Shown in pieces: positions 1,156 through 20,043 of a stretch of DNA of 64,000 bases. Where the stretch lies: the sequence record NZ_CP014126.2; one strand, given 5' to 3'. The first letter of the stretch is position 1. Each line of letters begins with the position of its first letter. Both the position numbers and the translations under genes were made by a program. Origin of the DNA: a plasmid. Under the pieces are notes generated by a model. It was not told where the DNA came from and ran no database searches. It was given only the letters and a program-made list of their open reading frames with translations.

Positions 1156-1168
1156 ATAGAGAGGGTGT

Positions 1169-2570: not shown

Positions 2571-2699
2571 AGTTTGCCGTAGCTACTATGAGTTTTAAGT
2601 GAGATAAATATGAGATATTTTAGTTGCTGATATGTTTCTTTTACCAGTGATCGTGTATATTTGTCTCATATAGTTCTCAAATAAAGGGTGTTAAGAGAT

Positions 2700-3656: not shown

Positions 3657-3660
3657 CGTC

Positions 3661-4026
3661 ATGGATACGCGCAGAAAAATCCAGTTTTACATTAATCCTA
3701 AGAGCAGCCTCGGTGAGGCTTATGCTGACAGTCACACCGATGAAACACCGCAGGGGGAACGCGGTCGACTCTGGAAGGCCGCGATGCTGAGCGGGTTTGC
3801 ACTTGAGCGTATCGATCCACGCCTCCCGTTTTTACTGTCTGAACTGCTGAGTGAAAACACGACAGCTGAAGAAGTGATTCAGGTTATCCGGGCGGTCTGT
3901 CCTAAAAAAATGACAGCCCAGTCTATGGCTGAGGCGGAAAATGAGATAGAACCCGTTGATGCTGCCAAAAATGACACTGTGGACGAAACACGCAGCAATG
4001 CGAAAGGTATGTTTGGTGTCAGTTAA
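3661..4026 (+). CDS. parR: ParR/StbB centromere-binding adaptor for ParM
   Basis: MDTRRKIQFYINPKS...PQGERGRLWKAAMLSGFALERIDPRLPFLLSELLSENTT resembles R1 ParR. ATG at 3661 lies 5 nt after the parM stop; the track starts at an upstream TTG at 3643. Confidence 0.75.
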   Translation: MDTRRKIQFYINPKSSLGEAYADSHTDETPQGERGRLWKAAMLSGFALERIDPRLPFLLSELLSENTTAEEVIQVIRAVCPKKMTAQSMAEAENEIEPVDAAKNDTVDETRSNAKGMFGVS

Positions 4027-4041
4027 CTTTATGAGGGTGCT

Positions 4042-4284
4042 ATGAACAGGGTGTTTATACTGGGAGCGGGATTCCTGGGATTCAGAAAGCTAACTGGTAA
4101 AGACAGGAAGAGTGCAGGGGAATGGGGCTTCCTAATCAGCATGCTATTTATCGTTCCACTGCTGTTCTGGGAAAGCCCCTCTGTCATAATATCTGTAGTT
4201 CTTCAGTTGATGTGGGGGGCAACAGCAACTCGATCAGCTTTTTTGGCTAATGAAACATGGAAAAAAAATAAACAGCAGCGATGA
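4042..4284 (+). CDS. small hydrophobic hypothetical protein
   Basis: 80-aa ORF with two predicted transmembrane segments downstream of parR; no recognisable family. Confidence 0.3.
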   Translation: MNRVFILGAGFLGFRKLTGKDRKSAGEWGFLISMLFIVPLLFWESPSVIISVVLQLMWGATATRSAFLANETWKKNKQQR

Positions 4285-4302
4285 ATTATTTTTAAAGAAT
4301 GT

Positions 4303-4336
4303 GGCCTGTCTGTTTAACTCAGGTGACAGACAGGCC
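4303..4336. terminator. Perfect 11-bp-stem hairpin (ggcctgtctgt...acagacaggcc) between convergent genes
   Basis: Inverted repeat read directly from the sequence. It lies 3' of the minus-strand umuC fragment and 3' of the plus-strand small ORF. Confidence 0.5.
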
Positions 4337-4374
4337 GAATGACGTATGTAGTAAAACTCGTTCAGCGCGCTGAC

Positions 4375-5412
4375 TCAGATTACCCTAGCGACCGGAATAT
4401 CGCTCCAGCGCGTTGTCCATGCCGGTGACAGCATATCTCGTTTCATCTTCCACTCCGTATTCACGCCCTGACCGGCAAACCACACACTGCCGAGCCCGGA
4501 TTGATTGATCCCGTCCAGAACCTTCATCAACTGTGCGCTATTTGCACGTGGCTTATCTTCATCGAACAGGTTGAGCTGACTGACGCCGTTCGGCGTAAAG
4601 TCATCGAGCATTATCCCGGCCTTCATGTAACGTCGCCCTTCAAGCCAGATGCGATCAAGAGATCGCATGGCCACTTCAATCACGTCCCGCGTGTCTTGGG
4701 TAGGAATTGTGAGACTCTCACCGGCGCTATTGCCATAAAATATCTCACCCTGCGCATGCGGTGAGGTGCGGATAAAGACGCTGATGCGCCGGCAGAACTG
4801 CCGTTCCTTTCTGAGCTTCTCCGCAGCCCGGGTTGCGTACTGACACAGCGCCTCCTGCATCAGCACCTTCGCCGTAATTCTCTCGCCAAAGGATCGGCTG
4901 CAGACAATCTGCTGTTTAGCAGGCACAAACTCTTCAAGGGGAATACAGGATTCTCCGTTAAGTTCCCGGACAGTACGCTCCAGCACGACGCTGAAGTTTT
5001 TACGGATAAGGGCAGGGTGGGCGCGCGACAGCTGCTGGGCGTTTTCAATCCCCATCAGATTAAGTCGCTTACCGATGCGCCGGCCAACGCCCCAGATTTC
5101 CTCCACGGGCTGGTTCGCCAGCAGGGCTGCGGTGCGCTTAGGATTACCCGGCGTCAGCGCCAATACACCGCGGAACTGTGGCCACTCTTTGCTGGCCCAC
5201 TGAGCTGATTTGGCCAGAGTTTTTGTCGGCCCCATTCCAACACCGACAGTAAGGCCAGTCGTAGCCAGCACGTGCACTCGCAGGCGCCGGCCGAAATGTT
5301 CAAAGTCTTCGCAGAAATCAATACCAGTCAGGTCCAGGAACATCTCATCAATGGAATACTGCTCAACGCGGGGTGTTATCTCTTCCAGCGCGGTCATGAC
5401 GCGCTGAGACAT
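4375..5412 (-). pseudogene. umuC: umuC 3' fragment (C-terminal ~345 codons of the polymerase V catalytic subunit), severed by an insertion
   Basis: The translation aligns with residues ~78-420 of the intact UmuC at 18707-19969 (SIDEMFLDLTG vs SIDESFLDVTG; GVGFGPTKTLAKLANH vs GVGMGPTKTLAKSAQW). Only a non-coding AT-rich stretch lies upstream. The missing N-terminus is found at 16365-16607. Confidence 0.85.
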
Positions 5413-5661
5413 GCTGTGGTTTATGTGGAATGCAATTTAAACAAAAAAATAAGTTACCATTCCTCTGAAGTTTATTTTCTGAACAGGAATTATTCAGCCT
5501 TGAACCACTTCGGTATGCTTACTGGCAGGGAGGAAAGTTGACGGGTGGTAAGACATAGCCGGAAAATCGATTTCCCCGCCGGGATTTAATCTGCCATGCT
5601 TATTCTGAAGCCCTCAATCGGGCAATGCGCTTTTATCTTTCACTTTATGCAGGAAGAAATA

Positions 5662-6660
5662 ATGATAAAAAATTACAGAATCCCGGGACTGACCGCGGTG
5701 GCATTTCTCCTCATAAGTACCATCGCAGGTGCTGCAGAAGCGCGCTGGACGTTTGACGGCGATATCCACAACAATTCCCTTGCTGTCAGTCCCGATGAAA
5801 AAACGGCGGTGGCGTCCTACAGTGAGCGCTCAGACGTGGTGGTCTATGATCTGGCTGCCGGGAAAGTCAGAAAGGTGATGAAGGGCTACGTCACCCCCCG
5901 TAATGCACTTTTCTCTCCGGACGGTAAGGCCATATTTCTTTCTGACAGCAGTCTCGGCGTAGTCAAAAAAATCAGCACCGGGACGCTTGACGTGGCGGCC
6001 ACGCTGCCGCTGGGGCCCGGGGCATTCGGCACGGCCATAAGTCGTGACGGTCAGCGACTGTATGTGAATAACGAGGCCGCCAGCACGCTCTCGGTGTATG
6101 ACCTTACACATGACCGGCCCATTGCAGTTGTGACGGGTTTTGCCCAGCCCCGTCAGGGCATTAAAATCAGCCCGGACGGCAAAACCGTCTACGTCACCAA
6201 CTTTAAGGGCGATAAAATTACCCTGGTTGATGCCGTGACGGGCGACATTCGCGGCGAGATAACCGGCTTCAGCAAGCTGCGCGCCATTTCTGTCAGCGCA
6301 GACGGCCGCACACTGTACGCGGCTAACAGCGGCAGCAACACAATCGCCGTGGTTGACACGCAAAAGCACGTCATTACGGCAACCATTCCCGTGGGTCAGG
6401 ACCCTTACGGTGCCGCGCTGACGCCGGATAACCGCTATGTTTACAGCGGCAACCTTGGCGACAACAGCCTCTCCGTTATTGATACCGCCGCCGGTAAGGT
6501 GGTGTCCACCGTCACCGGACTGGATGCGCCCCGTCAGGCGATTGTCTTCAACAAGGACGGTACCCGCGCGTGGGTGCTGAATAAAGACCTCAGCATTGCG
6601 GTGGTTGACCTGAAAAAGAACCGTGTCATGGCCACGATTAAAAGCCCGCCGCAGACCTGA
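5662..6660 (+). CDS. secreted YVTN-family beta-propeller repeat protein
   Basis: Signal peptide MIKNYRIPGLTAVAFLLISTIAGAAEA. Repeated S/TxDG(K/R)xxYV(T/A)N blades: SPDGKAIFLSD, SRDGQRLYVNN, SPDGKTVYVTN, SADGRTLYAAN, TPDNRYVYSGN, NKDGTRAWVLN. An RBS-spaced ATG is at 5662; the track ORF starts at 5596. Confidence 0.75.
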   Translation: MIKNYRIPGLTAVAFLLISTIAGAAEARWTFDGDIHNNSLAVSPDEKTAVASYSERSDVVVYDLAAGKVRKVMKGYVTPRNALFSPDGKAIFLSDSSLGVVKKISTGTLDVAATLPLGPGAFGTAISRDGQRLYVNNEAASTLSVYDLTHDRPIAVVTGFAQPRQGIKISPDGKTVYVTNFKGDKITLVDAVTGDIRGEITGFSKLRAISVSADGRTLYAANSGSNTIAVVDTQKHVITATIPVGQDPYGAALTPDNRYVYSGNLGDNSLSVIDTAAGKVVSTVTGLDAPRQAIVFNKDGTRAWVLNKDLSIAVVDLKKNRVMATIKSPPQT

Positions 6661-6810
6661 CGCGAAACCTCCCTTACTCCAGCGCAGTGACGATCCTTCG
6701 CAAAGTGGGGTGGTTAATCACTTTTATAGATTTATTTTAGCTAAATAACCTGTTTTAAAGATTTACTCTGACATGCCTATAATCTTTCTGTCTACTCAGG
6801 AGATTCCGGC

Positions 6811-7971
6811 ATGAACGATAAAATATTCACCCTGCATAACGGTGCGCGTCCGCTGAGCGCGCTGAGCAGCCCGAAAGAGGCCATACGACAGTTCACGCCT
6901 AACTGGTTCGCCGCGACCATGGGGACCGGCATCCTGTCGCTGTCTCTGGCGCAGTTCCCCTGGCAGGTTCCGGGATTGCGCCTTGTCGCCGAGGGGCTCT
7001 GGATGTTTAACATCCTCCTGTTCAGCGTCTTTGCCGTGATGTATCTGGCCCGCTGGGTGATGTACTTCGGAGAGGCAAAGCGCATTTTCGGCCATTCAAC
7101 CGTGTCCATGTTCTTCGGCACCATCCCGATGGGCATGGCGACCATCATCAATGGCCTGCTGGCGTTCGGTCTTCCGCGCTGGGGCGCAGACGTTATTCAG
7201 GTGGCACACGCCCTGTGGTGGCTGGACGTGGCGATGTCGCTGCTGTGCGGCGTGTGCATTCCCTACATGATGTTTACCCGGCAGCAGCACAGTATTGACC
7301 AGATGACTGCCGTCTGGTTACTGCCGGTCGTGGCAGCCGAGGTCGCGGCGGTCAGCGGCGGCCTGCTGGCGCCGCACATTGCTGCCCCACACGCGCAGCT
7401 CGGCATCATTATTACCAGCTACGTGCTGTGGGCGTACTCCGTGCCGGTGGCGCTGAGCATCCTCGCCATTCTGCTGCTGCGTATGGCGCTGCACAAGCTA
7501 CCGCACGAAAGCATGGCGGCCTCAAGCTGGCTGGCGCTGGGTCCGATTGGCACCGGCTCGCTCGGCATGCTGGTCATCGGCGGAGATGCGCCCGGGGTGT
7601 TTGCCGCGGCGGGCATGCCGGAAATCGGTCACATCGCGCAGGGCGTGGGGTTCGTTGCCGGCATTCTCTTCTGGGGCTGCGGCCTGTGGTGGATGCTGCT
7701 GGCCACGCTGATAACCGTGCGATACTTCCGTGAAGGCATCCCGTTCAACCTTGGATGGTGGGGCTTTACCTTCCCGCTGGGCGTGTACACCGTGGCCACG
7801 CTCAAGCTGTCTACCCTGATTGACCTCGCATTCTTTAAAGGCTTCGGTGCGCTTCTTGTCGTCATACTGGCGGCCATGTGGCTGCTTGTCGCGGTGAAAA
7901 CAGTGCGTGGGGCATGGAGCGGTAAACTGTTTGTTTCTCCCTGTCTGGCAGGCCTGGATCGGAAGCCGTGA
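6811..7971 (+). CDS. TDT-family (TehA / C4-dicarboxylate / malate / Ssu1-type) anion transporter
   Basis: 386-aa polytopic membrane protein. Hydrophobicity pattern of 10 transmembrane segments; the N-terminal region PNWFAATMGTGILSLSL is typical of TehA-like proteins. Confidence 0.6.
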   Translation: MNDKIFTLHNGARPLSALSSPKEAIRQFTPNWFAATMGTGILSLSLAQFPWQVPGLRLVAEGLWMFNILLFSVFAVMYLARWVMYFGEAKRIFGHSTVSMFFGTIPMGMATIINGLLAFGLPRWGADVIQVAHALWWLDVAMSLLCGVCIPYMMFTRQQHSIDQMTAVWLLPVVAAEVAAVSGGLLAPHIAAPHAQLGIIITSYVLWAYSVPVALSILAILLLRMALHKLPHESMAASSWLALGPIGTGSLGMLVIGGDAPGVFAAAGMPEIGHIAQGVGFVAGILFWGCGLWWMLLATLITVRYFREGIPFNLGWWGFTFPLGVYTVATLKLSTLIDLAFFKGFGALLVVILAAMWLLVAVKTVRGAWSGKLFVSPCLAGLDRKP

Positions 7972-8567
7972 GTGAAACCAGCACATCGATGCAGGACTCG
8001 TTTTTACGCGAGGAATGCCTCGCGGCAGTCACCGCGCCGCATGTGGCCGCGCTGAATCGCTGGGTCAGCGGCCAGCGTCAGGCCGGTGCAGAACTGCCGT
8101 GGTTTGATCCGGCTGACGGCGGGGTTAGGGCCGGACTGCTCGTCCTGCTGCAGTCGCCGGCGCGCAGCAGCCCGTCACCGCGGTTTGTGTCGCGTGATAA
8201 CCCGGGGCCGGCCCAGCAGAACCTTGGGCGGTTTCTGGCGGAAGCCGGTATTTCGCGTCAGGACAGCGTGCTGTGGAATACGGTGCCCTGGGTCAGTCAC
8301 GGGCTGCAGAAACGGCCGTCAGCGGCGGACATCCGCAGAGGCTGCGCCTTGCTTGAGGACGTGCTGGCGTATCTGCCCGCGCTGCGCGTGGTGGTGCTGG
8401 CCGGTGCCGTAGCGGCTCAGGCCCGCGGGACGGTCAATCATCTGTACCCCGGCGTCCCCGTGTTGACGATGCCGCACCCCAGTCCGCTTTCGCTCTGCAC
8501 GAGTCCGGCGGTGACGGAAAACATTCGCCGGGTACTCTGCGAGGCACGGGCTGCGCTGGCAGGCTGA
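7968..8567 (+). CDS. uracil-DNA-glycosylase-superfamily fold protein with divergent active-site motifs
   Basis: Architecture matches family-4 UDG: motif-B-like MPHPSPLS near the C-terminus and a G-x-FLxxAGI...V(L)WNTVPW block. The canonical GE(A/G)PG motif A is replaced by LQSPA. The start GTG overlaps the stop of the transporter gene. Confidence 0.45.
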   Translation: MSETSTSMQDSFLREECLAAVTAPHVAALNRWVSGQRQAGAELPWFDPADGGVRAGLLVLLQSPARSSPSPRFVSRDNPGPAQQNLGRFLAEAGISRQDSVLWNTVPWVSHGLQKRPSAADIRRGCALLEDVLAYLPALRVVVLAGAVAAQARGTVNHLYPGVPVLTMPHPSPLSLCTSPAVTENIRRVLCEARAALAG

Positions 8568-8586
8568 GGGCGCCAGCAGAATAATA

Positions 8587-8615
8587 CTGACAGGTTTTGC
8601 AACCGGCTCTATACT
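8587..8615 (+). promoter_or_regulatory. sigma70-like promoter (CTGACA-17 nt-TATACT) driving the riboswitch-led operon
   Basis: Hexamers with 17-nt spacing sit ~10 nt upstream of the riboswitch aptamer. Confidence 0.45.
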
Positions 8616-8625
8616 CATATGACAA

Positions 8626-8680
8626 GGTGATGGCGTTCCACCTTTCCCAACCGCTCCGTTCCGGAGCTGATGACGCCTGA
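8626..8680 (+). ncRNA. fluoride riboswitch (crcB RNA motif) aptamer
   Basis: GGUGAUGGCGUUCCACC-uuuCCCAACC-GCUCCguuccGGAGC-UGAUGACGCCU matches the conserved GGnGAUGGnGUUCnnCC...AAC...stem...UGAUGAC(U/G)CCU layout. The loop GGCGU can pseudoknot with ACGCC. It sits 85 nt upstream of ppaC. Confidence 0.8.
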
Positions 8681-8764
8681 TGCGACTCTTGATTTTCAGG
8701 AGGTGCGTCAGGCCGTCCTTACTTTCTTCCCGGCCTGCGTACTTCCCTCTTCGGGGAGAGACCT

Positions 8765-9673
8765 GTGATACACGTTTTTGGCCACATCAATCCTGACAGC
8801 GACGCCATCTGCACGGCCTTCGTCACCGCGCACTGGCTGACCGGGCGCGGCATGGACGCCCGCGCATGGCGTCTTGGCGAAGCTAACCGCGAAACCCATT
8901 TTATCTTTGACACCGCCGGACTCACGCTGCCGCCACGGCTTGATATTCCGCTACAGGATGAACGGGTCTGGCTGGTCGATTTCACCGAGCCGGCGCAGGG
9001 ACCTGACGACCTGCTCCGGAGCAACATCGTGGGGATCACTGACCACCACCGGCTGGGCGGACTGATAACGCAACTGCCGCCGGAGGTACACATACGCCCG
9101 CTTGGCAGCAGCGCCACGCTGCTGTGGCTGCTTATGAACGCTGAAGCGCGACGCACGCTGCCCCCGACGCTTGCCATTCTTCTGCTGGGTGCACTCCTGA
9201 GCGACACCGTGAATCTTCGCTCGCCCACCACGACCGAAGACGATATCCGTTCGGCTACCGAGCTGGGCGTACTGTCCGGCGTAAACCGCAGAGCCTTCGC
9301 CCGTGACCTCCTTACGGCAAAAACTGACGTCAGCGGCCTCAGCGCACAGCTGCTGCTGGACAGGGACCTCAAGGCCTTCGTCATTGCCGGCACTGACGTG
9401 CGCATCGCCCAGATTGAGGTCAGCTCCCCGTCACAGGTTGCCACCGTGATGGACGACCTGCTCGCTGCCCTGGCGTATCTGGCAGACCAGTCGGGTGCTG
9501 GTTTGGCGGTGCTGATGCTGACCGACATCCGGGCCGGGTTTTCAACGCTTTATTTCGCCGGGCGGGAGAGCGTTAACGCGGCCTCCTGCTCCGTACCGGG
9601 TATGCTCAGCCGCAAAAAACAGCTTCTGCCGTGGCTTGAGTCCCGCCTCAACCAGAACGGGAGTTCATTATGA
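8765..9673 (+). CDS. ppaC: DHH-family, family II (Mn-dependent) inorganic pyrophosphatase
   Basis: N-terminus (M)IHVFGHINPDSDAIC is DHH motif I. DHH motif: GITDHHRLG. The C-terminus SRKKQLLPWL matches the PpaC C-terminal signature. GTG start follows a GGGGAGAG RBS. Confidence 0.8.
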   Translation: MIHVFGHINPDSDAICTAFVTAHWLTGRGMDARAWRLGEANRETHFIFDTAGLTLPPRLDIPLQDERVWLVDFTEPAQGPDDLLRSNIVGITDHHRLGGLITQLPPEVHIRPLGSSATLLWLLMNAEARRTLPPTLAILLLGALLSDTVNLRSPTTTEDDIRSATELGVLSGVNRRAFARDLLTAKTDVSGLSAQLLLDRDLKAFVIAGTDVRIAQIEVSSPSQVATVMDDLLAALAYLADQSGAGLAVLMLTDIRAGFSTLYFAGRESVNAASCSVPGMLSRKKQLLPWLESRLNQNGSSL

Positions 9674-10095
9674 CCTGCTACACCCATGCATTGATACTTG
9701 TGAACGATAAAGACGACGGCACCCTCCTGCTGAAGCGGGCGGTCGCGCTGGCGCAGCCGCTCGGCATGAAAATCACCCTGGCCCACATCAGCGACGACTA
9801 CCGGGAAATGAACTACGTGTCCGACAGCCTGATGGACGACGTCGTGTCGGAAGAGGTGCTGAAATCCAAAGCGTTTATGAGCGAGCTGGCGGCCTCCGTG
9901 CCTGAGACGGTAGACATGCGGGAGCTGGTGACCATGCGCCGCTTTGAGGACGTGGAGAAGTGCATCGCTGAGCTGGGCGTGGACCTCGTGCTTGCCGGGC
10001 ACCGAAACCGCTTTATGGGAATGCTGACGTCCCGCTCGGCGGAATACATTAACCACCTCACGGTGGATGTGCTTATCACTCACCTGAATGACTGA
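9670..10095 (+). CDS. universal stress protein (UspA family)
   Basis: 141 aa. HAL(I)LVNDKDDG...LAHISDD...GVDLVLAGHRNRF...VDVLITH resembles the Usp ATP-binding fold pattern. Overlaps the ppaC stop. Confidence 0.7.
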   Translation: MTCYTHALILVNDKDDGTLLLKRAVALAQPLGMKITLAHISDDYREMNYVSDSLMDDVVSEEVLKSKAFMSELAASVPETVDMRELVTMRRFEDVEKCIAELGVDLVLAGHRNRFMGMLTSRSAEYINHLTVDVLITHLND

Positions 10096-10110
10096 ACCGG
10101 GAGAAACTCT

Positions 10111-11400
10111 ATGCGCTTTACACTGGATAACGTGACCGCCCGTGAAATTCTTGACTCTCGCGGCAACCCCACCGTTGAAGTCGAAGCCCGGACCGTGGAC
10201 GGAATGATGGCGCGGGCCTCGGTGCCTTCCGGGGCCAGCACCGGCTCGCGCGAGGCCGCTGAGCGCCGCGACGGCGACGTACACCGTTTTGGCGGTAAAG
10301 GCGTACTGGATGCTGTCAGGACGGTTAATACGGAAATCTGCGAAGCCTTGCGCGGCAGGGACGTGCGCGAGCAGCGTCAGCTGGATAACATCATGCTGGC
10401 GCTGGACGGTACGCAGAGCAAGAGTCGGCTGGGTGCCAATGCCATTCTGGGCGTGTCGCTGGCGGTTGCCCGGCTGGCGGCACAGGCCTCGCACGAGCCG
10501 CTCTGGCGCTACCTGGGGGGCCTGCAGGCGAACCTGCTGCCCGTACCGTGCATGAACATTATCAACGGCGGCGTGCACGCCCGCGGTCAGGGCGCGGACT
10601 TTCAGGAGTTCATGATAGCGCCACACGGGGCACCCACGCTGCGCGAGGCCGTGCGTCAGGGCAGCGAGGTCTACCAGGCGCTGCGCCAGATCCTGCTGGA
10701 CAAGAACCTGTCCGCGGCAGTCGGCGACGAAGGCGGTTTTGCGCCCGCCGTATCGTCGAACCGCGACCCGCTGGCGTTTATCGTGCAGGCCATTGAGAAG
10801 GCGGGGTACAGGCCCGGAGAAGACATCAGCATCTGCATGGACCCTGCCTCAAGTGAGTTTTTCGCAGACGGAAAATATCATCTGCGCACGGAGGGCAGTG
10901 CGCTGAGCGCGGCGGAAATGACGGCGTACTACGGCGAGCTGATGGACCAGTTTCCCGTCATTCTGCTGGAAGACGGCCTGGCAGAAGATGACTGGTCGGG
11001 CTGGAAGCATCTGCACCAGCAGCTTGCGGGCAGGGCCGAGCTGGTTGGTGACGACCTGTTTGTCACCAACGTGAAGTACATCCAGCGCGGCATTGACGAA
11101 AACCTCGCCAGCGCCGCATTGATTAAACTCAATCAGATAGGCTCGCTTAGCGAAACGCTGGACGCCGTGGCGCTCTGCCAGCGGCACGGGTGGGGCGCGT
11201 TCATGTCCCACCGCAGTGGGGAAACGACGGACACATTTCTTGCCGACCTCACGGTAGCCCTGCGCGCGGGACACCTGAAAACCGGTGCGCCGTGCCGCGG
11301 CGAACGCGTGGAAAAGTACAACCAGCTGATGCGCATTGAGCAGGCGCTGGGTGAGGACGCTCACTATGCGGGGCTTCATGCGTTTGTGCGCCGCACGTAA
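10111..11400 (+). CDS. eno: enolase (phosphopyruvate hydratase)
   Basis: 429 aa. N-terminus (V)TAREILDSRGNPTVEVEARTVDG; SHRSGETTDTFLADL catalytic region; IKLNQIGSLSETLDAV signature. Confidence 0.9.
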   Translation: MRFTLDNVTAREILDSRGNPTVEVEARTVDGMMARASVPSGASTGSREAAERRDGDVHRFGGKGVLDAVRTVNTEICEALRGRDVREQRQLDNIMLALDGTQSKSRLGANAILGVSLAVARLAAQASHEPLWRYLGGLQANLLPVPCMNIINGGVHARGQGADFQEFMIAPHGAPTLREAVRQGSEVYQALRQILLDKNLSAAVGDEGGFAPAVSSNRDPLAFIVQAIEKAGYRPGEDISICMDPASSEFFADGKYHLRTEGSALSAAEMTAYYGELMDQFPVILLEDGLAEDDWSGWKHLHQQLAGRAELVGDDLFVTNVKYIQRGIDENLASAALIKLNQIGSLSETLDAVALCQRHGWGAFMSHRSGETTDTFLADLTVALRAGHLKTGAPCRGERVEKYNQLMRIEQALGEDAHYAGLHAFVRRT

Positions 11401-11443
11401 CAGATCCACCGGACGGCCAGCGGCCGGCACAGGAGCACAGTCT

Positions 11444-12145
11444 TTGGCACCTTCAACGCTGATTCTCCTGCGCCATGGCGAAAGCCAGTGGAACCGGGAA
11501 AACCGTTTTACCGGATGGACAGACGTGCCGCTGACGGACCGGGGGCGGCAGGAGGCTGACCGGGCCGGTGACGTGCTGCGGGACGCGGGCCTGCTGCCCG
11601 ATCGGGTCTTCACCTCGGTGATGACGCGCTGTGTTCACACGGTCTGGCGGGTGCTGGACCGTCTTGGCCGCAGCTGGACGCCCGTGGACAAACACTGGCG
11701 GCTGAACGAGCGGCACTACGGTGCGCTGCAGGGGCTGAACAAGGAAGCGGCTGCCCGGATGATGGGTGCAGAGACCGTCCGGCTCTGGCGCAAAAGCTTC
11801 AGCGGCATTCCCCCCGCGGACGCAGGGGCTCCGGCGCAGCTGCGTCGGGACCCGCGCTACAGCCGCGTTGCGCTGGCCGACCTGCCTGCGACGGAAAGCC
11901 TGGAAATGACGCTGCGTCGCGTCATGCCCTACTGGCAGCACGCCGTGATGCCGCAGATACTCTGCGGAAGTACCGTTCTGGTCGTGGCGCACGGCAACAC
12001 GCTGCGCGCCCTGGCCGCCTTCCTGGACGGCATGCCACACGACAGCTTGGCACAGTTGCATATCCCGACCGGCGTGCCGGCCGTATACCAGATGGATGCG
12101 GCCGCACAGGTCGTTTCCCGTTATGTTCTGAATATAAAAAAATAA
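11444..12145 (+). CDS. gpmA: 2,3-bisphosphoglycerate-dependent phosphoglycerate mutase
   Basis: LILLRHGESQWNRENRFTGWTDVPLT is the histidine-phosphatase RHGE motif. The probable start is TTG at 11444, 8 nt after AGGAG. The track ORF (from 11336) overlaps the eno 3' end and is probably over-extended. Confidence 0.75.
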   Translation: MAPSTLILLRHGESQWNRENRFTGWTDVPLTDRGRQEADRAGDVLRDAGLLPDRVFTSVMTRCVHTVWRVLDRLGRSWTPVDKHWRLNERHYGALQGLNKEAAARMMGAETVRLWRKSFSGIPPADAGAPAQLRRDPRYSRVALADLPATESLEMTLRRVMPYWQHAVMPQILCGSTVLVVAHGNTLRALAAFLDGMPHDSLAQLHIPTGVPAVYQMDAAAQVVSRYVLNIKK

Positions 12146-12150
12146 AAGGA

Positions 12151-12531
12151 GTGAACGTGAATCAGCTTTTTGCTGTCATCACCGGCGGTGCTTTAGGGTG
12201 TGTTATCCGCTGGCAGCTGGGCGCGCGCCTGAACGCGCTTTTTCCGGACCTGCCGCCGGGGACGCTGCTGGTCAACCTGCTGGGAGGGTTTATCATCGGA
12301 GCGGCGCTGGCGTATTTTCTGCGCCATCCCGGCCTCGATCCGGCCTGGCGGCTGCTCATTACCACCGGGCTGTGTGGCGGAATGACGACCTTCTCCACGT
12401 TCTCGGCTGAGGTTTTTGCCCTGCTGCAGTCCGGCAGCTATGCCTGGGCAGCCGCCTCGGTGCTGATACACGTGCTGGGTTCGCTGGCCATGACGGCGGC
12501 CGGATTTTATATCATGACGCTGTGTGGTTAA
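12151..12531 (+). CDS. crcB: CrcB/Fluc fluoride ion channel
   Basis: 126 aa with four transmembrane segments and the GGxTTFSTF signature (CGGMTTFSTFSAE). GTG start follows AGGAG. Confidence 0.85.
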   Translation: MNVNQLFAVITGGALGCVIRWQLGARLNALFPDLPPGTLLVNLLGGFIIGAALAYFLRHPGLDPAWRLLITTGLCGGMTTFSTFSAEVFALLQSGSYAWAAASVLIHVLGSLAMTAAGFYIMTLCG

Positions 12532-12546
12532 CCCGAGGGAGACCTT

Positions 12547-12566
12547 AGTGCAGTGACCGCTGCACT
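12547..12566 (+). terminator. stem-loop (agtgcag-N6-ctgcact) immediately 3' of crcB
   Basis: 7-bp inverted repeat 16 nt after the crcB stop. Confidence 0.4.
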
Positions 12567-12664
12567 GAGGTATATTGTTCAGAAGCGCTCTCTGCAGGCC
12601 AGACCTGACAGGGTTTACGCTTGTAATGCTTCCCGTACACCTGAGGCGCTGCTGTGAAAGAATT

Positions 12665-13078
12665 TCAGGCCTGCCTGTTCTGGTAAAGGTCCCAGCGATT
12701 GCCGTAGATGTCCTCAAATACGACAACCATTCCGTATTCTTCCTCCCGTGGCTCCTGAAAGAAGTGGACGCCTTTTGCCTTCATAGCATTGTAGTCGCGC
12801 CAGAAGTCGTCGGTCTGCAGGAACAGAAAAACCCGTCCGCCGCACTGATTGCCGATAAAGCCTTCCTGCCGGTCGTTCGACGCGCGGGCAAGAAGAATAG
12901 CACAGTCGCTGTCAGGGGCCGGCGTCACCACGACCCAGCGCTTACCCGGCTGCGGCGTGTCTTCAATGAGGGTAAAGCCCAGCTTATCGGTGTAGTACTC
13001 AATTGCACGATCGTAGTCATCGACCACGACCGCCACGTATCCCATACATCGCTTCTGTTTTCTCATCTGCTGCTCCAT
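12665..13078 (-). CDS. VOC-family (glyoxalase / bleomycin-resistance fold) protein
   Basis: MGYVAVVVDDYDRAIEYYTDKLGFTLIED...ILLARA...GRVFLFLQTDDFWRDYNAMKAKGVHF is typical of a paired betaalphabetabetabeta module. Confidence 0.65.
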   Translation of the reverse strand: MEQQMRKQKRCMGYVAVVVDDYDRAIEYYTDKLGFTLIEDTPQPGKRWVVVTPAPDSDCAILLARASNDRQEGFIGNQCGGRVFLFLQTDDFWRDYNAMKAKGVHFFQEPREEEYGMVVVFEDIYGNRWDLYQNRQA

Positions 13079-13191
13079 CAGTTACGGCATTACGCCCGTT
13101 ATAATCAGCTTTATATCAAATACGGCGTTCAGTTATCTGTACTGATTCTGCACTGATACCCTCAGACCTGACATTGTAAGCATCTGAGCAG

Positions 13192-15363
13192 TCAGGATTG
13201 TGGGCCCAATCTTGTAAGAGCCTGCTCAACCTTTTCAGCATCCTGCTCCAGTATGGCTCTCTCATCGGGAGTGAGCGGGACCTCTTCGAGGTAACGCCGG
13301 ATGGATGCTTTACTCTCCAGTATCAGCCCGCGCGCGCTATCCTTCAGCAGGTTAAAATCGCAGCCGATGCAGGCCATCCGGTGCGGGCAACTGCTCCAGA
13401 AGGGGTTCGTACAGTATGAGTCGCCCAGATCGTAGTAGGTCGCGGGCCCGGACAGGCTGGCGGCTTCAGGATCGTGGTCAACCAGCACGCTTATCATATG
13501 AGCGACCCTGTCGGCTTTGACGAACGAGGCAGCCAGCTGAGTCGGGCGGATGCGAAGATAGTGCATTGTAGACTGGGGCGTTGAATGGCCCGTCCACTGC
13601 ATCAGTTCGTACAGCGACATGCCCTGCGGTACGCTCGCCAGCGCGGTCACGGCTGAGGCCCGCCCCCGGTGGCTGGTTATCATTCCGCCACTGTCTTCAC
13701 AAGGCACGCCCGCTCTTGCGCATAGCATCGGTATCACGGTGCGGTTGAGGATAGCGCTGCCGGCAGGCTTACCCCGGTACTGAAACAGAAGCCGGACTTT
13801 CTCACCGGTTCGCTCGTCAGCGAGCAAAGCCTGTTCTGCCGGACGCTCATCCAGCCATATGTCGACGTATTTTTTCACCACGGCCGCCACCGGTTTAACA
13901 AAGGCTTTTGAGGTTTTTCCGGCAGGGATATGCAGGTAACACAGGGTTCCTGCCGGGATGATACTTCCGTCGTCCTTCACGATATCGTCCGCCTGCGGCG
14001 CGATGCACCCGGTTGTCAGGCGGAGCAGTTCGTTCTTTCTTACCCCCGCATGGGTCCAGATGACGGCCATTGCCTGCAGCATGGCCAGTGGATAATGTAT
14101 TTCAGTGAGCAGATCTTCCTGACGCAGATTGAGGCTGGCCCAGATGAGCTTCAGCCAGACCGGATCGTCAATAACACGGGGATTGACGCCGCGACGGAAC
14201 AGCGGCGTATCCGGTGTGGAAAGATGGCGGGCAGGGCTGAAGTGCAGGCGCCCCCAGCCCCAGTTTTCGTAATCAATCATAAAACGGCGCAGAGAATAGA
14301 TAAAATGCGCCCTGGAATGCGGCATCATGGGCTCGCCGGAGCGCACCGATTTGCCGGTGCCCCTTTCCGTGCCCAGCTGAAGCTCATCCACGTTCATCCG
14401 GCCTACCGCCGCAATGAAGCTGGCGCAGGTTTCCATTGTCCAGTCTGCCGGTTCCCGAACCTCCGGATGCTCCTTTTTCAGCCAGAGGCCGCAGCGCAGA
14501 ATAAAGCTGTACTGGCTTTCACGGGTGCGCGGCCTGAGCACCGACGTTTCCCGCCAGCGCCGGCACCAGTGCACCCAGGCCGGATCGACGCCTTCGACCG
14601 GCTTTTCGTACCATTTTTTATAGTTTCGCATCCTCACCGGGGCGCTGATAATCCCCAGTGCGGCAAGTGCATGTGAAACGCGGCCGACGTAACGGGATAT
14701 TCCCTTGTCTGTCCCGCTCTGGGCGCGCCAGAGGAGTTCAGGCGTAAACGTTTCAAGCCGGGGATCCCTGTTCATGATCATCAGTGTTGCCAGTATACCC
14801 GAGACATGATTTTTCTGGCTGGTCGGGGCATAACCCAGCGACGTCAGCGTATCAGTCAGCCGGTCCAGCTCCTGGTGATAAAAAGCCTGGCCGAAGATGG
14901 CAGAAGCATAGAGCGCGGGTTTACGTATATCAGGCAGGCTGAGCGGGTCATGCAAATCAGCCAGATGCCAGGCAAAAGCGGCCATTAACGGACGGCCCTC
15001 CCTGACTTCCCGGCACAGCGTCAGCCAGCGTTCCTGCGGCCAGCACCAGCAGGGCATGCCGTCTGCATGCATTTCGCGCAGCAATCCGGCTATCACCAGC
15101 CCCGTGATTTTGCTGCCGCATCCGCTTCCGGCGGCAATGTCCATCAGCGGCCTGATGAGGTCCGGCACCGGCTTCGTTCGCAGCATACGGGACCGGCTGT
15201 GAGCGCTGCTCAGTGCCGTCCGTTCAGCGAGGGTCAGTGACGCCTCAAGCCGGTATTCAGTCATGTCGAACGGATGCCGGCTGTTTTCAATCGGTGTGTG
15301 TGGGCTCATGTTATTTCTCTGTTCTGAAAATGAGGTTCGCCATCCTGATATCTGCCGTTTCAA
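13192..15363 (-). CDS. large tyrosine recombinase (723 aa) with a long N-terminal extension
   Basis: The C-terminus carries ...ITSHRGRASAVTALA... (HxxR) and ...GHSTPQSTMHYLRI (H...Y nucleophile). It overlaps the upstream small recombinase gene by 53 nt, which suggests an operon. Confidence 0.7.
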   Translation of the reverse strand: MKRQISGWRTSFSEQRNNMSPHTPIENSRHPFDMTEYRLEASLTLAERTALSSAHSRSRMLRTKPVPDLIRPLMDIAAGSGCGSKITGLVIAGLLREMHADGMPCWCWPQERWLTLCREVREGRPLMAAFAWHLADLHDPLSLPDIRKPALYASAIFGQAFYHQELDRLTDTLTSLGYAPTSQKNHVSGILATLMIMNRDPRLETFTPELLWRAQSGTDKGISRYVGRVSHALAALGIISAPVRMRNYKKWYEKPVEGVDPAWVHWCRRWRETSVLRPRTRESQYSFILRCGLWLKKEHPEVREPADWTMETCASFIAAVGRMNVDELQLGTERGTGKSVRSGEPMMPHSRAHFIYSLRRFMIDYENWGWGRLHFSPARHLSTPDTPLFRRGVNPRVIDDPVWLKLIWASLNLRQEDLLTEIHYPLAMLQAMAVIWTHAGVRKNELLRLTTGCIAPQADDIVKDDGSIIPAGTLCYLHIPAGKTSKAFVKPVAAVVKKYVDIWLDERPAEQALLADERTGEKVRLLFQYRGKPAGSAILNRTVIPMLCARAGVPCEDSGGMITSHRGRASAVTALASVPQGMSLYELMQWTGHSTPQSTMHYLRIRPTQLAASFVKADRVAHMISVLVDHDPEAASLSGPATYYDLGDSYCTNPFWSSCPHRMACIGCDFNLLKDSARGLILESKASIRRYLEEVPLTPDERAILEQDAEKVEQALTRLGPQS

Positions 15364-16312
15364 TCGCGCCAGCCATCCGGGCAGCCAGGTCCCTGCCAGA
15401 AAGATGAATATAAATCTGTGTTGTGGTCAGGTCGCGGTGTCCTGCATAGGTGGCAAGTTCGTGCAACTTCCAGCCCGCGCGGGCAAGGTGTGTGAGTCGC
15501 AGGTGCCGGAAGGTATGGGTTGAGATGTCCGGCATCCCAGACTCAAGCGCCCATTTCCGTACCGTTTTGCTCCAGGTCCAGAATGAAAGCGGCCCGCCCT
15601 GATTACGATCGGACTCAGAACGGAACAGGGCACCTCTTACGATTCCGGTCCGCTTCATCTGCATAAGGTGCGCGGCCAGCACTGGCACTACTGCCGGGCT
15701 GTAACAGACAATTCGTTCACGCCGGCTCTTGGTGGTTTCTGCCCGGATGCGGATGAGCCGGTGAGCAAAGTCGAAGTCGTCAATACTTAGCGAGGTAATT
15801 TCAGACCGACGCAGCGCGCCGTAATAGGTTAATGCCAGCATCAGGCGGTCACGCAGTGGGGAAGCGGCGGCATGATAAAGAAAACACTGCCACTGCGCAT
15901 CGTCAGGAATGCGCGGCAGCTTTACAACGCGGGGAACCAGTCCCCGGCCGGAACTCAGCATGCCGGGCGTGCCGGATCGGGGCAGCGGATTGACCGTGCA
16001 AAGATCCAGGTACATGAGAAAGTCATACCAGAGGCGGATCGCCGACAGGCGAAGCTGGAGCGTGGCGCTGGCCGCGGAAAAAGGCATCCCGGGTAACTGA
16101 GGACTAATATAGGCAGCCAGGTCTTCAAACCGCGCCTTTTCAGGTTTAATTCCGTTCTGGCTGCAGAACGCAAAGTAATGACGGAGGGCATTGCGGTAGG
16201 CTGTTAGCGTGGCCTGCGCCCGCCCCAGATCGGATAACAGTTGCAGCCAGCGCTCTGCCAGCAACAGAACGTGTTCACTCGGTGGAATCAGCATTGCATT
16301 CTCCTCTGACAA
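15311..16312 (-). CDS. tyrosine recombinase, XerD-like (333 aa)
   Basis: C-terminus HTFRHLRLTHLARAG...LATYAGHRDLTTTQIYIHL gives the complete R..HxxR..H/Y catalytic set. It is the first gene inside the right end of the element. Confidence 0.8.
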   Translation of the reverse strand: MSEENAMLIPPSEHVLLLAERWLQLLSDLGRAQATLTAYRNALRHYFAFCSQNGIKPEKARFEDLAAYISPQLPGMPFSAASATLQLRLSAIRLWYDFLMYLDLCTVNPLPRSGTPGMLSSGRGLVPRVVKLPRIPDDAQWQCFLYHAAASPLRDRLMLALTYYGALRRSEITSLSIDDFDFAHRLIRIRAETTKSRRERIVCYSPAVVPVLAAHLMQMKRTGIVRGALFRSESDRNQGGPLSFWTWSKTVRKWALESGMPDISTHTFRHLRLTHLARAGWKLHELATYAGHRDLTTTQIYIHLSGRDLAARMAGAIETADIRMANLIFRTEK

Positions 16313-16364
16313 CAGCTTTGCTGTTCAAAGTTTACTCAATCAATGTTGCATTCCACGTAACTTA

Positions 16365-16607
16365 CTAGAGCGCGTAGTTTGAACTAAAGACGTGCACACG
16401 CTCGGCAAAATCCTGATTTTTTATCTGGAACCACGGCGCGCCCATTTTAATGCCCAGCTTTTTTGCGCCGGCGCTGCGCGCGATGATGCAGCCGTCATTG
16501 TTCGACAGGACGACAACGGGCTTACCGCGCAGATCAGGGCGAAACAGTGCTTCGCAGCTGGCATAAAACGAATTGACGTCGGCCAGGCCAAACATTGGCA
16601 TGATCAC
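16365..16607 (-). pseudogene. umuC: umuC 5' fragment (first ~78 codons), fused to element-derived codons
   Basis: MFGLADVNSFYASCEALFRPDLRGKPVVVLSNNDGCIIARSAGAKKLGIKMGAPWF...HVFSSNY aligns with the N-terminus of the intact UmuC (MFALADANNFYASCETVFRPDLRGKPIVVVSNNDGCVIARSAEAKRLGVKMAAPLF...HVFSSNYEL), then ends in AL-stop. It overlaps the umuD stop. Confidence 0.85.
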
Positions 16608-17053
16608 CTCCGGCGGGCTCGGGTACTGTTGAAGAACCAGGTAACCACACCGAGCAGCTGCAGCTCCTCCGGATAAATTACCGGATAGGCCGGGTTCATC
16701 GGCAGCAGTGCGAGCCTGGGCTGCAGCTGCAGACGCTTGACCGTAAATTCGCCGTTAACCTCAGCGATCACTATGTCGCCGTGAGCCGCCTCTTCTGCCC
16801 GGTCAACCACCATGACATCACCATCGCAGAGACCGAGATCCCGCATACTGTTTCCACTGGCGCGCACGAAAAAAGTTGAGGCGCGCCGGCGAATGCAGAG
16901 CTCATTCAGATCGAGTTCTTTCTCAACGTAATCCTGAGCGGGGGAAGGGAAGCCGGCGGCGCAAGGATCAGCATACAGCGGCACCCGGACACGGGGCGTA
17001 AATATGGGTGGCCAGAGCAACGTCAGCCCGGGAGTATAGTTACCCGGATTCAT
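16604..17053 (-). CDS. umuD: UmuD, SOS mutagenesis protein (canonical, self-cleaving type)
   Basis: Cleavage-site region PCAAGFPSPAQDYVE; catalytic Ser in ASGNSM and Lys in EFTVKRLQL, matching UmuD/LexA S24 peptidases. Confidence 0.85.
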   Translation of the reverse strand: MNPGNYTPGLTLLWPPIFTPRVRVPLYADPCAAGFPSPAQDYVEKELDLNELCIRRRASTFFVRASGNSMRDLGLCDGDVMVVDRAEEAAHGDIVIAEVNGEFTVKRLQLQPRLALLPMNPAYPVIYPEELQLLGVVTWFFNSTRARRR

Positions 17054-17131
17054 GACCTGATGCCCAGGCCATACTGCAGCAGTACTGCGGAAACTTTGTT
17101 GAAATTGCGCATAAAATTCCTCCTCTTATTT

Positions 17132-17151
17132 TACTGTTTATATGTACAGTA
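17132..17151. promoter_or_regulatory. LexA (SOS) box TACTGTTTATATGTACAGTA
   Basis: Perfect CTGT-N8-ACAG palindrome 80 nt upstream of minus-strand umuD. Confidence 0.85.
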
Positions 17152-17350
17152 TTATTGAGGTGAATTAATCTGGCAAGAGGGAGCGAAGCGGCCATGTATA
17201 AAAGCGAAGCCATCTGTCTGACAGAATAGGAAATTTTATGAAGGTCAGCCCGGCACTAAGTGGCCCGGCAGCTTTAACAGTAATGCAGAATGTATGTTTG
17301 GTGTGTAAGCAGTTCATGCCGGCATCGGTGAAATGACGCTTCCTCGCCAC

Positions 17351-17389
17351 GGCTGTTCGTTCCTCGCTGCGCTGCGGTACGCCTCAGCC
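17351..17389. repeat. dispersed 39-bp repeat GGCTGTTCGTTCCTCGC..CGCTGCGGTACGCCTCAGCC (copy 1)
   Basis: Near-identical (37/39) to 53807-53845, which lies inside the tra operon. Confidence 0.5.
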
Positions 17390-17508
17390 GGGCCTGCGGC
17401 GAGCGTTACAATTGCACGTTCAGGGAAAGAAATATGCAGCCCTGTTACTCTTCCGGCTTACCTATTCCGGCAACAATACCCAGCTGAGAGATGCGAACCA
17501 TAAAAGCG

Positions 17509-18189
17509 TTAATCCTTATCTGCCGGTGAGGCCTCGATAAGCTCACTACCCTGGTGATGAATATTGCCAACTTTTTTGCTGACAGGATGCCAGGTAAATG
17601 CTTTTTCCGGAACGGCTGCATCGCGGGCAATTTCTTCTGCACGCGCTGGAGACGTTTCGTCACTGAGCCATTCACGAACAGCATCAGGCGTAATCACCAG
17701 CGGCCGCCTGTCATGTATATCGACCATGCCCTGATTGCTGGCTGACGTGACAATCACGAAGCCCTCTTTGCCGTGATCCTGCCCGTACGGCTGCCTGCCG
17801 ATGGCGGCGAAGAAAAGTGGCTCCTTTTTTTTGTGAAAGATGAAGAATGGCTGCTTCTCACCACCTTCTTTCTGCCATTCGAACCAGCCGTCAGCAGGCA
17901 CGATAGCGCGGCCATGATTCCAGAGAGGCTTAAACATGCGGCCGCTCGCAGCCGTCTCACCGCGCGCGTTGATAAGTGGCTGCTTATCCCACCATTCCGG
18001 TCCGTAGCCCCAATATACCGGATCGAGGCGCAACGAATCTTCCTGTTCGTGTAGCAGTAACACTTTAGTGCCTGGTGCTACGTTAAAGCGCCCGAGAGGT
18101 TCCGGATCGAATGTGATTTCGTCCGGTGTCAGGCCGAGTGAGTCAAAATAATCGTCGCGGCTGCTGTACTGCGCAAATCTTCCACACAT
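17509..18189 (-). CDS. SOS-response-associated peptidase (SRAP / YedK-like, DUF159)
   Basis: N-terminal MCGRF with catalytic Cys2; 226 aa; conserved WNHGRAIVPADGWFEW. It lies between two umuDC operons. Confidence 0.8.
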   Translation of the reverse strand: MCGRFAQYSSRDDYFDSLGLTPDEITFDPEPLGRFNVAPGTKVLLLHEQEDSLRLDPVYWGYGPEWWDKQPLINARGETAASGRMFKPLWNHGRAIVPADGWFEWQKEGGEKQPFFIFHKKKEPLFFAAIGRQPYGQDHGKEGFVIVTSASNQGMVDIHDRRPLVITPDAVREWLSDETSPARAEEIARDAAVPEKAFTWHPVSKKVGNIHHQGSELIEASPADKD

Positions 18190-18314
18190 AGTTACCTCCT
18201 GCTGTTGATGTAAGGATAGCGACGTATACTGATATCAGGAGTATTAAATGCGCCTGTATGACGGACACCCGGTCGTTATCAGGTTCACCTCACAAGGCTG
18301 AAAAGCTGTAAATA

Positions 18315-19969: not shown

Positions 19970-20043
19970 CTTTAAGTTATAAAGCTAGGTGAATCTGTTC
20001 ATGCAATTCACTTCACCCTAGCGCTATTTTATGAATAATGCTG

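Follow-up and report, generated by a model that had tools for sequence, protein, structure and literature searches.

An island of about 11 kb with about 60% G+C and 11 genes, in which XerC/XerD-like recombinases lie next to a short 5' piece of umuC, was described by De Maayer et al. (2015, PMC4458695) in ICEPan, pEB102, pEI70 and P. vagans C9-1 as the 'umuDC island'. Xu et al. (2018, PMC5971314) described the same island as fragment R4' of pPV989-94. The other closely similar system is that of the effector-carrying 'integron-like elements' in rulB of P. syringae, e.g. on pDC3000A and at the avrPpiA1 locus (Arnold 2000 and Jackson 2011, as cited in PMC4542609). We analysed a stretch of 64,000 nucleotides of the plasmid NZ_CP014126.2 (the window), in which a umuC gene on the minus strand is interrupted by an insert of 10,946 bp (5421-16366). 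The insert is the same island as the umuDC island, with which it shares the mae1-like transporter and gpmA, eno, ppaC, uspA and crcB, and its recombinase module and ends match those of the rulB element of pDC3000A; the statement of an earlier sequence-only reading that it cannot be placed in any described family can thus not be maintained. The insert is very probably a non-conjugative, site-specific integrative element of a two-tyrosine-recombinase family, which would move via an attP core and carries a fluoride cargo. The observation is confirmed and the interpretation supported, and both the island and the operon type are already published.

The two pieces of the split umuC are colinear with the intact paralogue at 18707-19969, as seen in the open reading frame (ORF) map and a protein alignment (70% amino acid identity for the 5' piece and 54% for the 3' piece). 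Island copies on other plasmids cease to match at bases 5421 and 16366 (megablast, H6/H7, query 122-11067), and an uninterrupted umuC, 92.4% identical across both flanks, is present on the P. agglomerans plasmids pPagL15_3 and pAR1aD (empty sites L004 and L005). The empty site reads GAGACATAC-TGTGGT/AAAGCGCG (here and below a slash marks a junction), with no base extra or missing, and comparison of the junctions with it revealed neither a target-site duplication nor a loss of target bases. Removal of 5421-16366 in silico yields the in-frame sequence SSNYALYHSMSQRVM. The shared end points of the copies, the empty site and the in-frame deletion together fix the limits, which place the insertion between T and A of the Tyr codon in the conserved UmuC motif SSNYxLY. 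The G+C content rises from ~50% in the flanks to 59-68% within the insert. The earlier claim that umuC is split by an insert is therefore borne out by alignment, empty site and in-silico deletion, and the search for an uninterrupted umuC proposed with it, where non-matching flanks were named as counter-evidence, returned contiguous umuC genes that match both flanks; the limits given at the time (5413-16372) had the right place but were 8 bp and 6 bp too wide.

A syntenic intact umuC is present on a related conjugative backbone as well (L091), but as the best empty site it was rejected since the allele is diverged (74-78% identity), leaving L004 and L005 as the best ones. A 1-bp target duplication at the junction was also considered and rejected, as an inverted copy of the island (L001, see below) and the family alignment put the start of the arm at TTATGTGG. 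The 5' piece retains an ORF of 80 codons (16607 to 16365, minus strand), and the second umuDC locus of the plasmid (18315-19969) is intact. The sequence-only reading took one of the two polymerase V loci to be inactivated: the split is certain, and a loss of function would be what it suggests. In rulB, the insertion of another kind of element, with three recombinases and at a different place, left UV tolerance undiminished (PMC4542609).

The ends of the element were compared in a survey of 80 genomic loci of Gamma- and Alphaproteobacteria and of Acidobacteriota metagenome-assembled genomes (MAGs), which provided 75 recombinase-side ends with readable flanks. Both ends are available for 32 loci (the window and 31 others), and in all of these removal of the element restores the reading frame. 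The two terminal arms in the window are 15-bp inverted repeats (TTGCATTCCACRTAA) matching at 14 of the 15 positions, and the cargo-end arm is conserved as ...ATTCCACATAA/ throughout the family. The cargo-side arm is in direct contact with target DNA, and the recombinase-side arm is separated from the target by six element bases; this spacer, together with the target T, gives the in-frame stops TAG TAA that end the umuC 5' fragment. The spacer, read in the sense of umuC, is AGTAAG in 54 of the 75 family ends and ATTAAG in 14, the remaining 7 having a one-base variant, and target sequence was found in its place at none of the 75. The target 6-mer beside the cargo arm, the putative overlap region of attB, takes 19 forms among the 32 loci. 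By eye, the attB half-sites showed no likeness to the element arms (3/11 and 4/13 positions). Classical lambda-type recombination with an identical overlap was rejected, as AGTAAG and the variant target 6-mers (ACCACA, ATGGCG and others) share no required identity.

At least 80% of the island is held by 18 PLSDB plasmids. Copies that are 99.4-100% identical occur on E. billingiae pEB102, E. persicina pEP1 and several P. agglomerans plasmids, which differ in replicon and mobility type; near-identical copies always adjoin umuD/umuC, and the best database match to the window copy including its flanks is pEB102 (99.4%). On pCFSAN047154_4 (L001) the island is inverted relative to umuC with the 6-bp site unchanged. 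One could regard the insert as the immobile relic of an old insertion, passed on by vertical descent or carried along only when the surrounding umuDC recombined homologously, for which the flanking umuC sequences could provide the substrate; some relatives are indeed decayed, such as an E. cloacae element with an internal stop in its small recombinase gene and the truncated L090, L061 and H21/H24. The window copy, however, has two intact recombinase genes and exact junctions, identical islands are found in strongly differing umuC alleles (flank identities 52-92%), and homologous exchange leaves the inverted copy at the same 6-bp site unexplained, which renders a relic very unlikely. The mobility already proposed from the sequence agrees better with the occurrence of 99.4-100% identical copies in umuC across replicons and species, in either orientation, and with the preserved catalytic residues.

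Sister elements, which have the same ends and recombinases that are 84-91% identical, differ widely in their cargo (e.g. LysR/SDR/amidohydrolase genes, aldo-keto reductases with an MFS pump, or a chemotaxis receptor), and the element of an E. cloacae IncF plasmid (L009), whose module is 66-71% identical, carries a restriction-modification system. The internal stop codon mentioned above lies in the small recombinase gene of L009 (13013-13957), and this element is probably immobilised. The fluoride cargo in turn is joined to at least two recombinase modules: relative to L031 the cargo (within 5421-16366) shows 91-96% nucleotide identity and the recombinase region 49-80%, and the same cargo with a diverged recombinase module is found in L030 and L035. 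Cargo and recombination modules therefore have separate histories. At two loci (L003, 989-3113, and L006, 2094-4218) two umuC 3' fragments are present in tandem, ~45 bp apart, and the intervening stretch starts with a second, slightly different cargo-type arm (TTATGTGGAATACAA); the arrangement suggests that insertions were nested or accreted and that DNA between recombinase-side ends was then deleted.

Relatives of the large recombinase were found on 601 plasmids and in many genomes, and the gene order is small recombinase then large recombinase in all surveyed loci. The insertion follows ...AAY-TAY-NNN-CTN-T in umuC (the Tyr codon of SSNYxLY), with the recombinases downstream of umuD-umuC', at 65 of the 75 ends, where the preceding umuC sequence is ...AAYTAYNNNCTNT. 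Two ends are inverted in the same umuC site, five (Acetobacteraceae and one Terracidiphilus) interrupt a UvrD-like helicase gene at its motif III Tyr codon (VGDDxQSIY), one is a tandem junction (L092) and two are located elsewhere. The size of the elements ranges from 3,400 bp to 12,540 bp among the loci with both ends. The smallest (L067, a Methylobacter MAG, 1706-5105) consists of the ends and two recombinase genes only and is a natural minimal element, so a third element gene is not needed; the gene next to the recombinases varies between family members. The distance from the arm to the start of the small recombinase is 54-92 nt in the family, mostly 62-68, and 72 nt in the window.

Some further observations concern the targets. 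The helicase branch (L079, L085-L087 and L089 of Acetobacter and Komagataeibacter, and L077, a Terracidiphilus MAG) has a 39-44% identical large recombinase, inserts into a UvrD/Rep-like gene at VGDDSQSI/Y (e.g. in L087 near 8854) and combines a spacer TATAAG or AGTAAG with the same type of arm. In L068, L069, L072 and L074 (Methylomonas, Methylococcales) the cargo opens, next to the large recombinase, with a umuC-like gene of full length (44-49% identical over residues 4-427), and these elements seem to bring a replacement for the umuC they split. The intact paralogous umuC of the window carries a perfect family target (18923-18950, AACTACGAGCTAT/ACGGCG/ACAT, cut point 18935/18936) and yet is unoccupied.

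The catalytic residues of the small recombinase (R162/R163, K189, H260, R263, H286 and Y295) are invariant in an alignment with homologues down to 47-48% identity, and its ATG lies 72 nt inside the element end. The large recombinase has an N-terminal helical extension of ~230 residues, and its catalytic residues R424, K465, H547, R550, H575 and Y584 are invariant in 59 homologues with identity down to 48%. Its structure model is of moderate confidence, with a pLDDT of 70 and a pTM of 0.41, with the catalytic region 549-626 below 50, and a PDB fold search with this model gave generic recombinases only (XerA, VchIntI, Cre) and no specific structural relative. C-terminal to the catalytic Tyr, an invariant cluster of Cys and His residues (C633, C641, H643, C647 and C650; 13192-13400) is a possible zinc-binding DNA-recognition module, in a part of the model with low confidence. 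The integron integrase models reached only 59 bits (cut-off 265) and 29 bits (cut-off 435), and no cassette structure was found; the element genes carry their own promoter-like site and riboswitch.

How could these recombinases produce the observed junctions? A circular form would contain an attP core of the type arm-AGTAAG-arm, i.e. a classical tyrosine-recombinase core with a 6-bp spacer, with ...TTGCATTCCACATAA-AGTAAG-TTACGTGGAATGCAA... as the predicted circle junction and GCGCTCT/ACCACAGC as the predicted restored umuC. This attP would recombine with an attB in umuC whose 6-bp central region needs no particular sequence; because no identity between spacer and target 6-mer is required, the exchange would be independent of overlap homology. 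Either orientation gives B-spacer-arm and arm-target 6-mer-B' without exception, and the product would be decided solely by the strand that is cut where the spacer meets the cargo arm. If only this cleavage defines the product, then the Holliday junction is probably resolved by replication, or the exchange is otherwise one-sided; full two-strand exchange is disfavoured because the target 6-mers would then adjoin the recombinase arm in about half of the insertions, and none were seen. The simplest reading of the junctions would be a single strand exchange resolved by replication. Such an exchange has been proposed for integron cassettes and for CTX phage integration. A related replication-resolved exchange has, in different form, been proposed for the SEs, one of the groups compared below (PMC10214605). 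Since the target half-sites do not resemble the arms, a division of labour between the recombinases is suggested, in which, speculatively, one reads the arms and the other reads umuC. The element, which has no transfer genes, would spread by occupying a gene that is common on conjugative plasmids and integrative and conjugative elements (ICEs).

The position of the element also suggests a connection to the SOS response. The umuD gene, umuC' and the small and large recombinase genes are co-oriented in this order, with a LexA box upstream of umuD, and in the 72-nt gap between umuC' and the recombinase genes no terminator-like site was found. SOS-driven expression is possible because the recombinase genes are located directly downstream of the LexA-controlled umuD-umuC' in the usual orientation: DNA damage could drive their expression by read-through, and the orientation bias of 65:2 fits this. 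SOS-driven expression or excision was already suggested in 2015 (De Maayer et al., PMC4458695). A gene for an SRAP/YedK-like SOS-response-associated peptidase (17509-18189) lies between the two divergently arranged umuDC loci, and the same arrangement, a small DNA-damage-tolerance cluster, is found on the related plasmid L091.

The core of the cargo is formed by a fluoride riboswitch and ppaC-usp-eno-gpmA-crcB, all on one strand. The riboswitch match is full-length (model positions 1-64 of 64), is the sole Rfam family within 3000-21000, directly follows a promoter-like site and precedes the ppaC start codon by 78 nt. In a fold of 8600-8770 a hairpin is found downstream of the aptamer, with its left arm overlapping the aptamer 3' part, which is the putative expression platform; at the 3' side of crcB there is a hairpin and then a convergent VOC gene. 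Searches with Rfam, Pfam and NCBIfam confirmed the two tyrosine recombinases, the riboswitch and the five operon genes named in the sequence-only reading, and added four cargo genes (for the beta-propeller, TDT/SLAC1 transporter, uracil-DNA glycosylase-superfamily and VOC/glyoxalase proteins) to its list. Pyrophosphatase and enolase are inhibited by fluoride. Fluoride bound to the riboswitch would let transcription continue into ppaC-usp-eno-gpmA-crcB, upon which CrcB would export fluoride and extra pyrophosphatase, enolase, phosphoglycerate mutase and stress protein would be made.

The same gene order is known from E. cloacae FRM, in which the operon ppaC-uspA-eno-gpmA-crcB-orf5249 sits behind a fluoride riboswitch, is induced 10-100-fold by fluoride and is required for growth at high fluoride, as established by knockout and complementation (Liu et al. 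2017, PMC5533749). The island has RF01734 followed by ppaC-uspA-eno-gpmA-crcB in identical order, the comparison being one of gene order; the FRM operon has orf5249 as a sixth gene downstream of crcB and is located on the chromosome, within an island that has transposases on its flanks and is not a umuC element. A version ppaC-usp-eno-crcB on Citrobacter and Klebsiella plasmids has ~74% nucleotide identity and is flanked by insertion sequences. It was earlier proposed that the cargo is a general carbon/energy-metabolism or stress module: eno, gpmA and ppaC encode central metabolic enzymes and were read as glycometabolism genes (PMC4458695, PMC5971314), and four cargo genes are without a fluoride link. 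Against this, a full-length, high-scoring fluoride riboswitch stands directly before an operon ending in crcB, and the gene set and order are those of an operon that is fluoride-induced and needed for resistance in E. cloacae FRM; we consider a general metabolic or stress module very unlikely. We therefore keep to the fluoride operon: the island plausibly confers fluoride resistance, by analogy with FRM, and the fluoride tolerance suggested by the sequence-only reading is plausible given that promoter-like site, riboswitch and operon match the validated architecture. The term 'dedicated' cassette used there is too strong because of the four genes (out of nine) without a known fluoride link.

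Several points weigh against the reading as a mobile, SOS-linked fluoride-tolerance element. The excision, circular form, SOS induction and fluoride tolerance proposed for the island are drawn from comparison. The nearest empty site is 92.4% identical to the flanks and not identical. An arm-AGTAAG-arm junction had one match in the metagenome collection (L092, Ga0265780_10000131, 8094-8123), inside a 121-kb contig, where it is adjoined by a pair of recombinases with 70% identity; one element's cargo end there runs directly into the recombinase end of a second element, which indicates a tandem array and not a free circle. The one-sided exchange is deduced only from the missing target 6-mers beside the recombinase arm, in copies that are not all independent. 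A single CTGT-N8-ACAG match is the chance expectation for 64 kb, so that it is the position of the LexA box that gives it meaning. The four cargo genes without a known fluoride link are unexplained, and there is no evident counterpart of FRM orf5249 in the operon of the window, where crcB is followed by the hairpin and the convergent VOC gene.

Table. Features of the insert and of the disrupted umuDC operon (positions in the window; ORF, open reading frame)
Feature	Position	Strand	Basis
umuC 3' fragment, from AC of the split Tyr codon to the stop	4375..5420	-	paralogue alignment, empty site, in-silico deletion
ATG-initiated 345-aa ORF left in the umuC 3' fragment	4375-5412	-	ORF list
Target-derived 6-mer TGTGGT (ACCACA in umuC sense), abutting the cargo-end arm	5415..5420		present in empty site L004
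Cargo-end terminal arm TTATGTGGAATGCAA	5421..5435		read from sequence
Beta-propeller (YVTN/YncE/lactonase-like) protein	5662..6660	+	Pfam, NCBIfam; start per RefSeq annotation of identical copy
TDT/SLAC1-family anion transporter	6811..7971	+	PF03595, E 3e-94
Uracil-DNA glycosylase superfamily protein	7968..8567	+	PF03167, E 1e-12
Promoter-like site CTGACA-17-TATACT	8587..8615	+	consensus scan, 10/12 positions; pattern match only
Fluoride riboswitch aptamer (crcB motif, RF01734)	8617..8686	+	cmscan 51.3 bits, gathering score 34, E 7e-12
ppaC, family II (DHH/DHHA2) Mn-dependent inorganic pyrophosphatase	8765..9673	+	Pfam DHH and DHHA2; NF003877, E 6e-80
usp, universal stress protein	9670..10095	+	PF00582
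eno, enolase	10111..11400	+	TIGR01060, 581 bits vs cut-off 300
gpmA, 2,3-bisphosphoglycerate-dependent phosphoglycerate mutase	11444..12145	+	TIGR01258, 285 bits vs cut-off 82; start per RefSeq annotation of identical copy
crcB, fluoride channel (Fluc)	12157..12531	+	NF010792, 178 bits vs cut-off 125
VOC/glyoxalase-family protein	12665..13066	-	PF00903, E 6e-20
Large tyrosine recombinase, 705 aa	13192..15309	-	PF00589
Small XerC/D-like tyrosine recombinase, 327 aa	15311..16294	-	alignment; NCBIfam Xer-type matches far under curated cut-offs
Recombinase-end terminal arm TTGCATTCCACGTAA	16346..16360		
Element-borne 6-bp spacer CTTACT (AGTAAG in umuC sense)	16361..16366		
umuC 5' fragment, codons 1 to ~80, last base the T of the split Tyr codon	16367..16607	-	
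umuD of the disrupted operon	16604..17053	-	ORF list; tblastn and annotation of equivalent loci
LexA box TACTGTACATATAAACAGTA upstream of the disrupted umuD	17132..17151		only CTGT-N8-ACAG site in the 64-kb window

The two earlier descriptions of the island viewed its content differently. The words fluoride and crcB do not occur in De Maayer et al. (PMC4458695), and Xu et al. mention the fluoride sensitivity of enolase and pyrophosphatase and the riboswitch in passing and class the genes under glycometabolism and resistance (PMC5971314). The recombinase module of the pPV989-94 copy (H93) is only ~70% identical to that of the window. The passages of both papers that deal with the island do not give the exact ends, arms, spacer, lack of duplication or family assignment; relative to these passages, sequence comparison would add exactly how the ends are built, the rule that junctions are one-sided, how widely the two-recombinase family occurs and has changed its target, and the explicit fluoride reading. 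With the work on the island and that on the fluoride operon brought together, the most fitting reading of the umuDC island of Pantoea and Erwinia is that of a transmissible determinant of fluoride tolerance. Such tolerance may be of importance where plant-associated bacteria meet fluoride-rich soils, phosphate fertilisers or fluorinated agrochemicals.

A close relative in architecture is the rulB element of pDC3000A, which consists of rulA, an 82-residue rulB', recombinases of 336 and 713 residues, one effector and a 346-residue rulB''; the umuC fragments in the window correspond to ~80 and 345 residues. In both, a Xer-like integrase gene is co-oriented with the 5' fragment and followed by a gene for a recombinase of ~710 residues, and the integrase gene lies ~60 bp from the truncated rulB' (PMC4542609), to which the 72-nt leader in the window corresponds. 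The large recombinase of the window is 57% identical to that of L052 over residues 13-701, which itself is 98.3% identical to the pDC3000A protein, and the small recombinase is 56% identical to the pDC3000A type. The pDC3000A junctions, ...AATTTTGGGCTTT/AGTAAG/TTAAGTGGAATGC and ...ATTCCACATAA/ATGGCG (compared in L093), share arms, spacer and target codon with the window. The pDC3000A element differs in its single-effector cargo, its size (4.2 kb) and its Pseudomonas host. The name 'integron-like' is misleading, as there is no IntI, attI or attC.

Other elements use the same hotspot: a 2025 survey names rulAB/umuDC a common integration site. ILE-FH1/4/5 (Rhodes 2014), GInts and SEs, including carriers of tmexCD-toprJ, share with the island the location in rulB/umuC, tyrosine recombinases, a variable cargo and the lack of transfer genes. 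They differ in having three recombinase-fold genes and a small accessory gene (tetR-like, GinD or Srap), where the island has two recombinases, and in a site at about residue 34-41 of RulB/UmuC, where that of the island is at codon ~78-80; ILE-FH elements insert ~123 bp into rulB with a 3-bp GAT direct repeat and SEs leave a donor-derived 6-bp footprint, whereas the island has no repeat and a constant spacer. On the P. aeruginosa megaplasmid p2014S09-209-1 (L010, 2881-23408) one umuC is occupied twice, by a three-recombinase element with mer genes after residue ~34 and by a two-recombinase element with chlorite dismutase and cupin genes after residue ~77, and a further three-gene recombinase module beside tmexCD follows immediately. 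BLASTP against the two three-gene modules of L010 gave no match better than E 0.004, with a few short matches in the catalytic region, and membership of the SE, GInt or ILE-FH groups was rejected on gene set, BLASTP, insertion site and constant spacer. At least two unrelated recombinase systems thus use the umuC/rulB gene of conjugative plasmids and ICEs as a common landing pad, and the genes that they move between them include those for type III effectors, restriction-modification systems, resistance to mercury and to fluoride, and tmexCD-toprJ.

The island might still be a Tn554- or SE-like 'copy-out/copy-in' transposon that takes a 6-bp footprint of the donor flank to the new site, since with these it shares an ordinary and a large recombinase with RHRY residues, a strict target specificity, the absence of mobilisation genes and of a target duplication, and a 6-bp unit at one junction (PMC10214605). 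Yet AGTAAG or ATTAAG is present at 68 of the 75 ends whatever the flank, so that the 6-mer is not renewed from the donor; a Tfp/GinC-like gene or a Srap/GinD/TnpC-like gene is missing, also in the 3.4-kb member with its two recombinases only; and the three-gene modules on the same P. aeruginosa plasmid as a two-recombinase element show no BLASTP similarity. We consider such a transposon unlikely. The resemblance of the site-specific integrative element proposed here to Tn554 of Staphylococcus and Enterococcus is architectural only: an ordinary (TnpA) and a large (TnpB) recombinase gene in this order, site specificity and no duplication. Tn554 needs the accessory gene tnpC for transposition, where the island family has no conserved third gene, and it carries a 6-7 bp junction from its previous site, where the island spacer is constant whatever the flank and the hosts are proteobacterial. 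No staphylococcal or enterococcal genus was among the ten commonest with matches to the large recombinase (tblastn against 72,556 plasmids, E <= 1e-5), a weak negative as 28 rarer genera were not named.

The mechanism of the family is still under-characterised. The mapping of the exact ends and the natural 3.4-kb minimal member make the family tractable for studying tyrosine-recombinase integration without overlap homology and whether the SOS response triggers movement. A 2023 survey distinguished five classes of tyrosine-recombinase elements (ICE/IME, SE, GInt, RIT and Tn554), and the two-recombinase umuC family is not among them. We tentatively suggest, as a possibility somewhat short of even, that the two-recombinase umuC/rulB elements, together with the distant branch retargeted to the motif III Tyr codon of a UvrD-like helicase gene, could be a distinct, formally unrecognised class of tyrosine-recombinase transposons. 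Such a class would have an attP core whose fixed 6-bp spacer is not homologous to the target, a one-sided exchange, probably resolved by replication, into a single Tyr codon of a conserved polymerase motif, a division of roles in which one recombinase binds the inverted arms and the other the unrelated half-sites of the target, and recombinase expression under the SOS-controlled umuDC promoter of the host.

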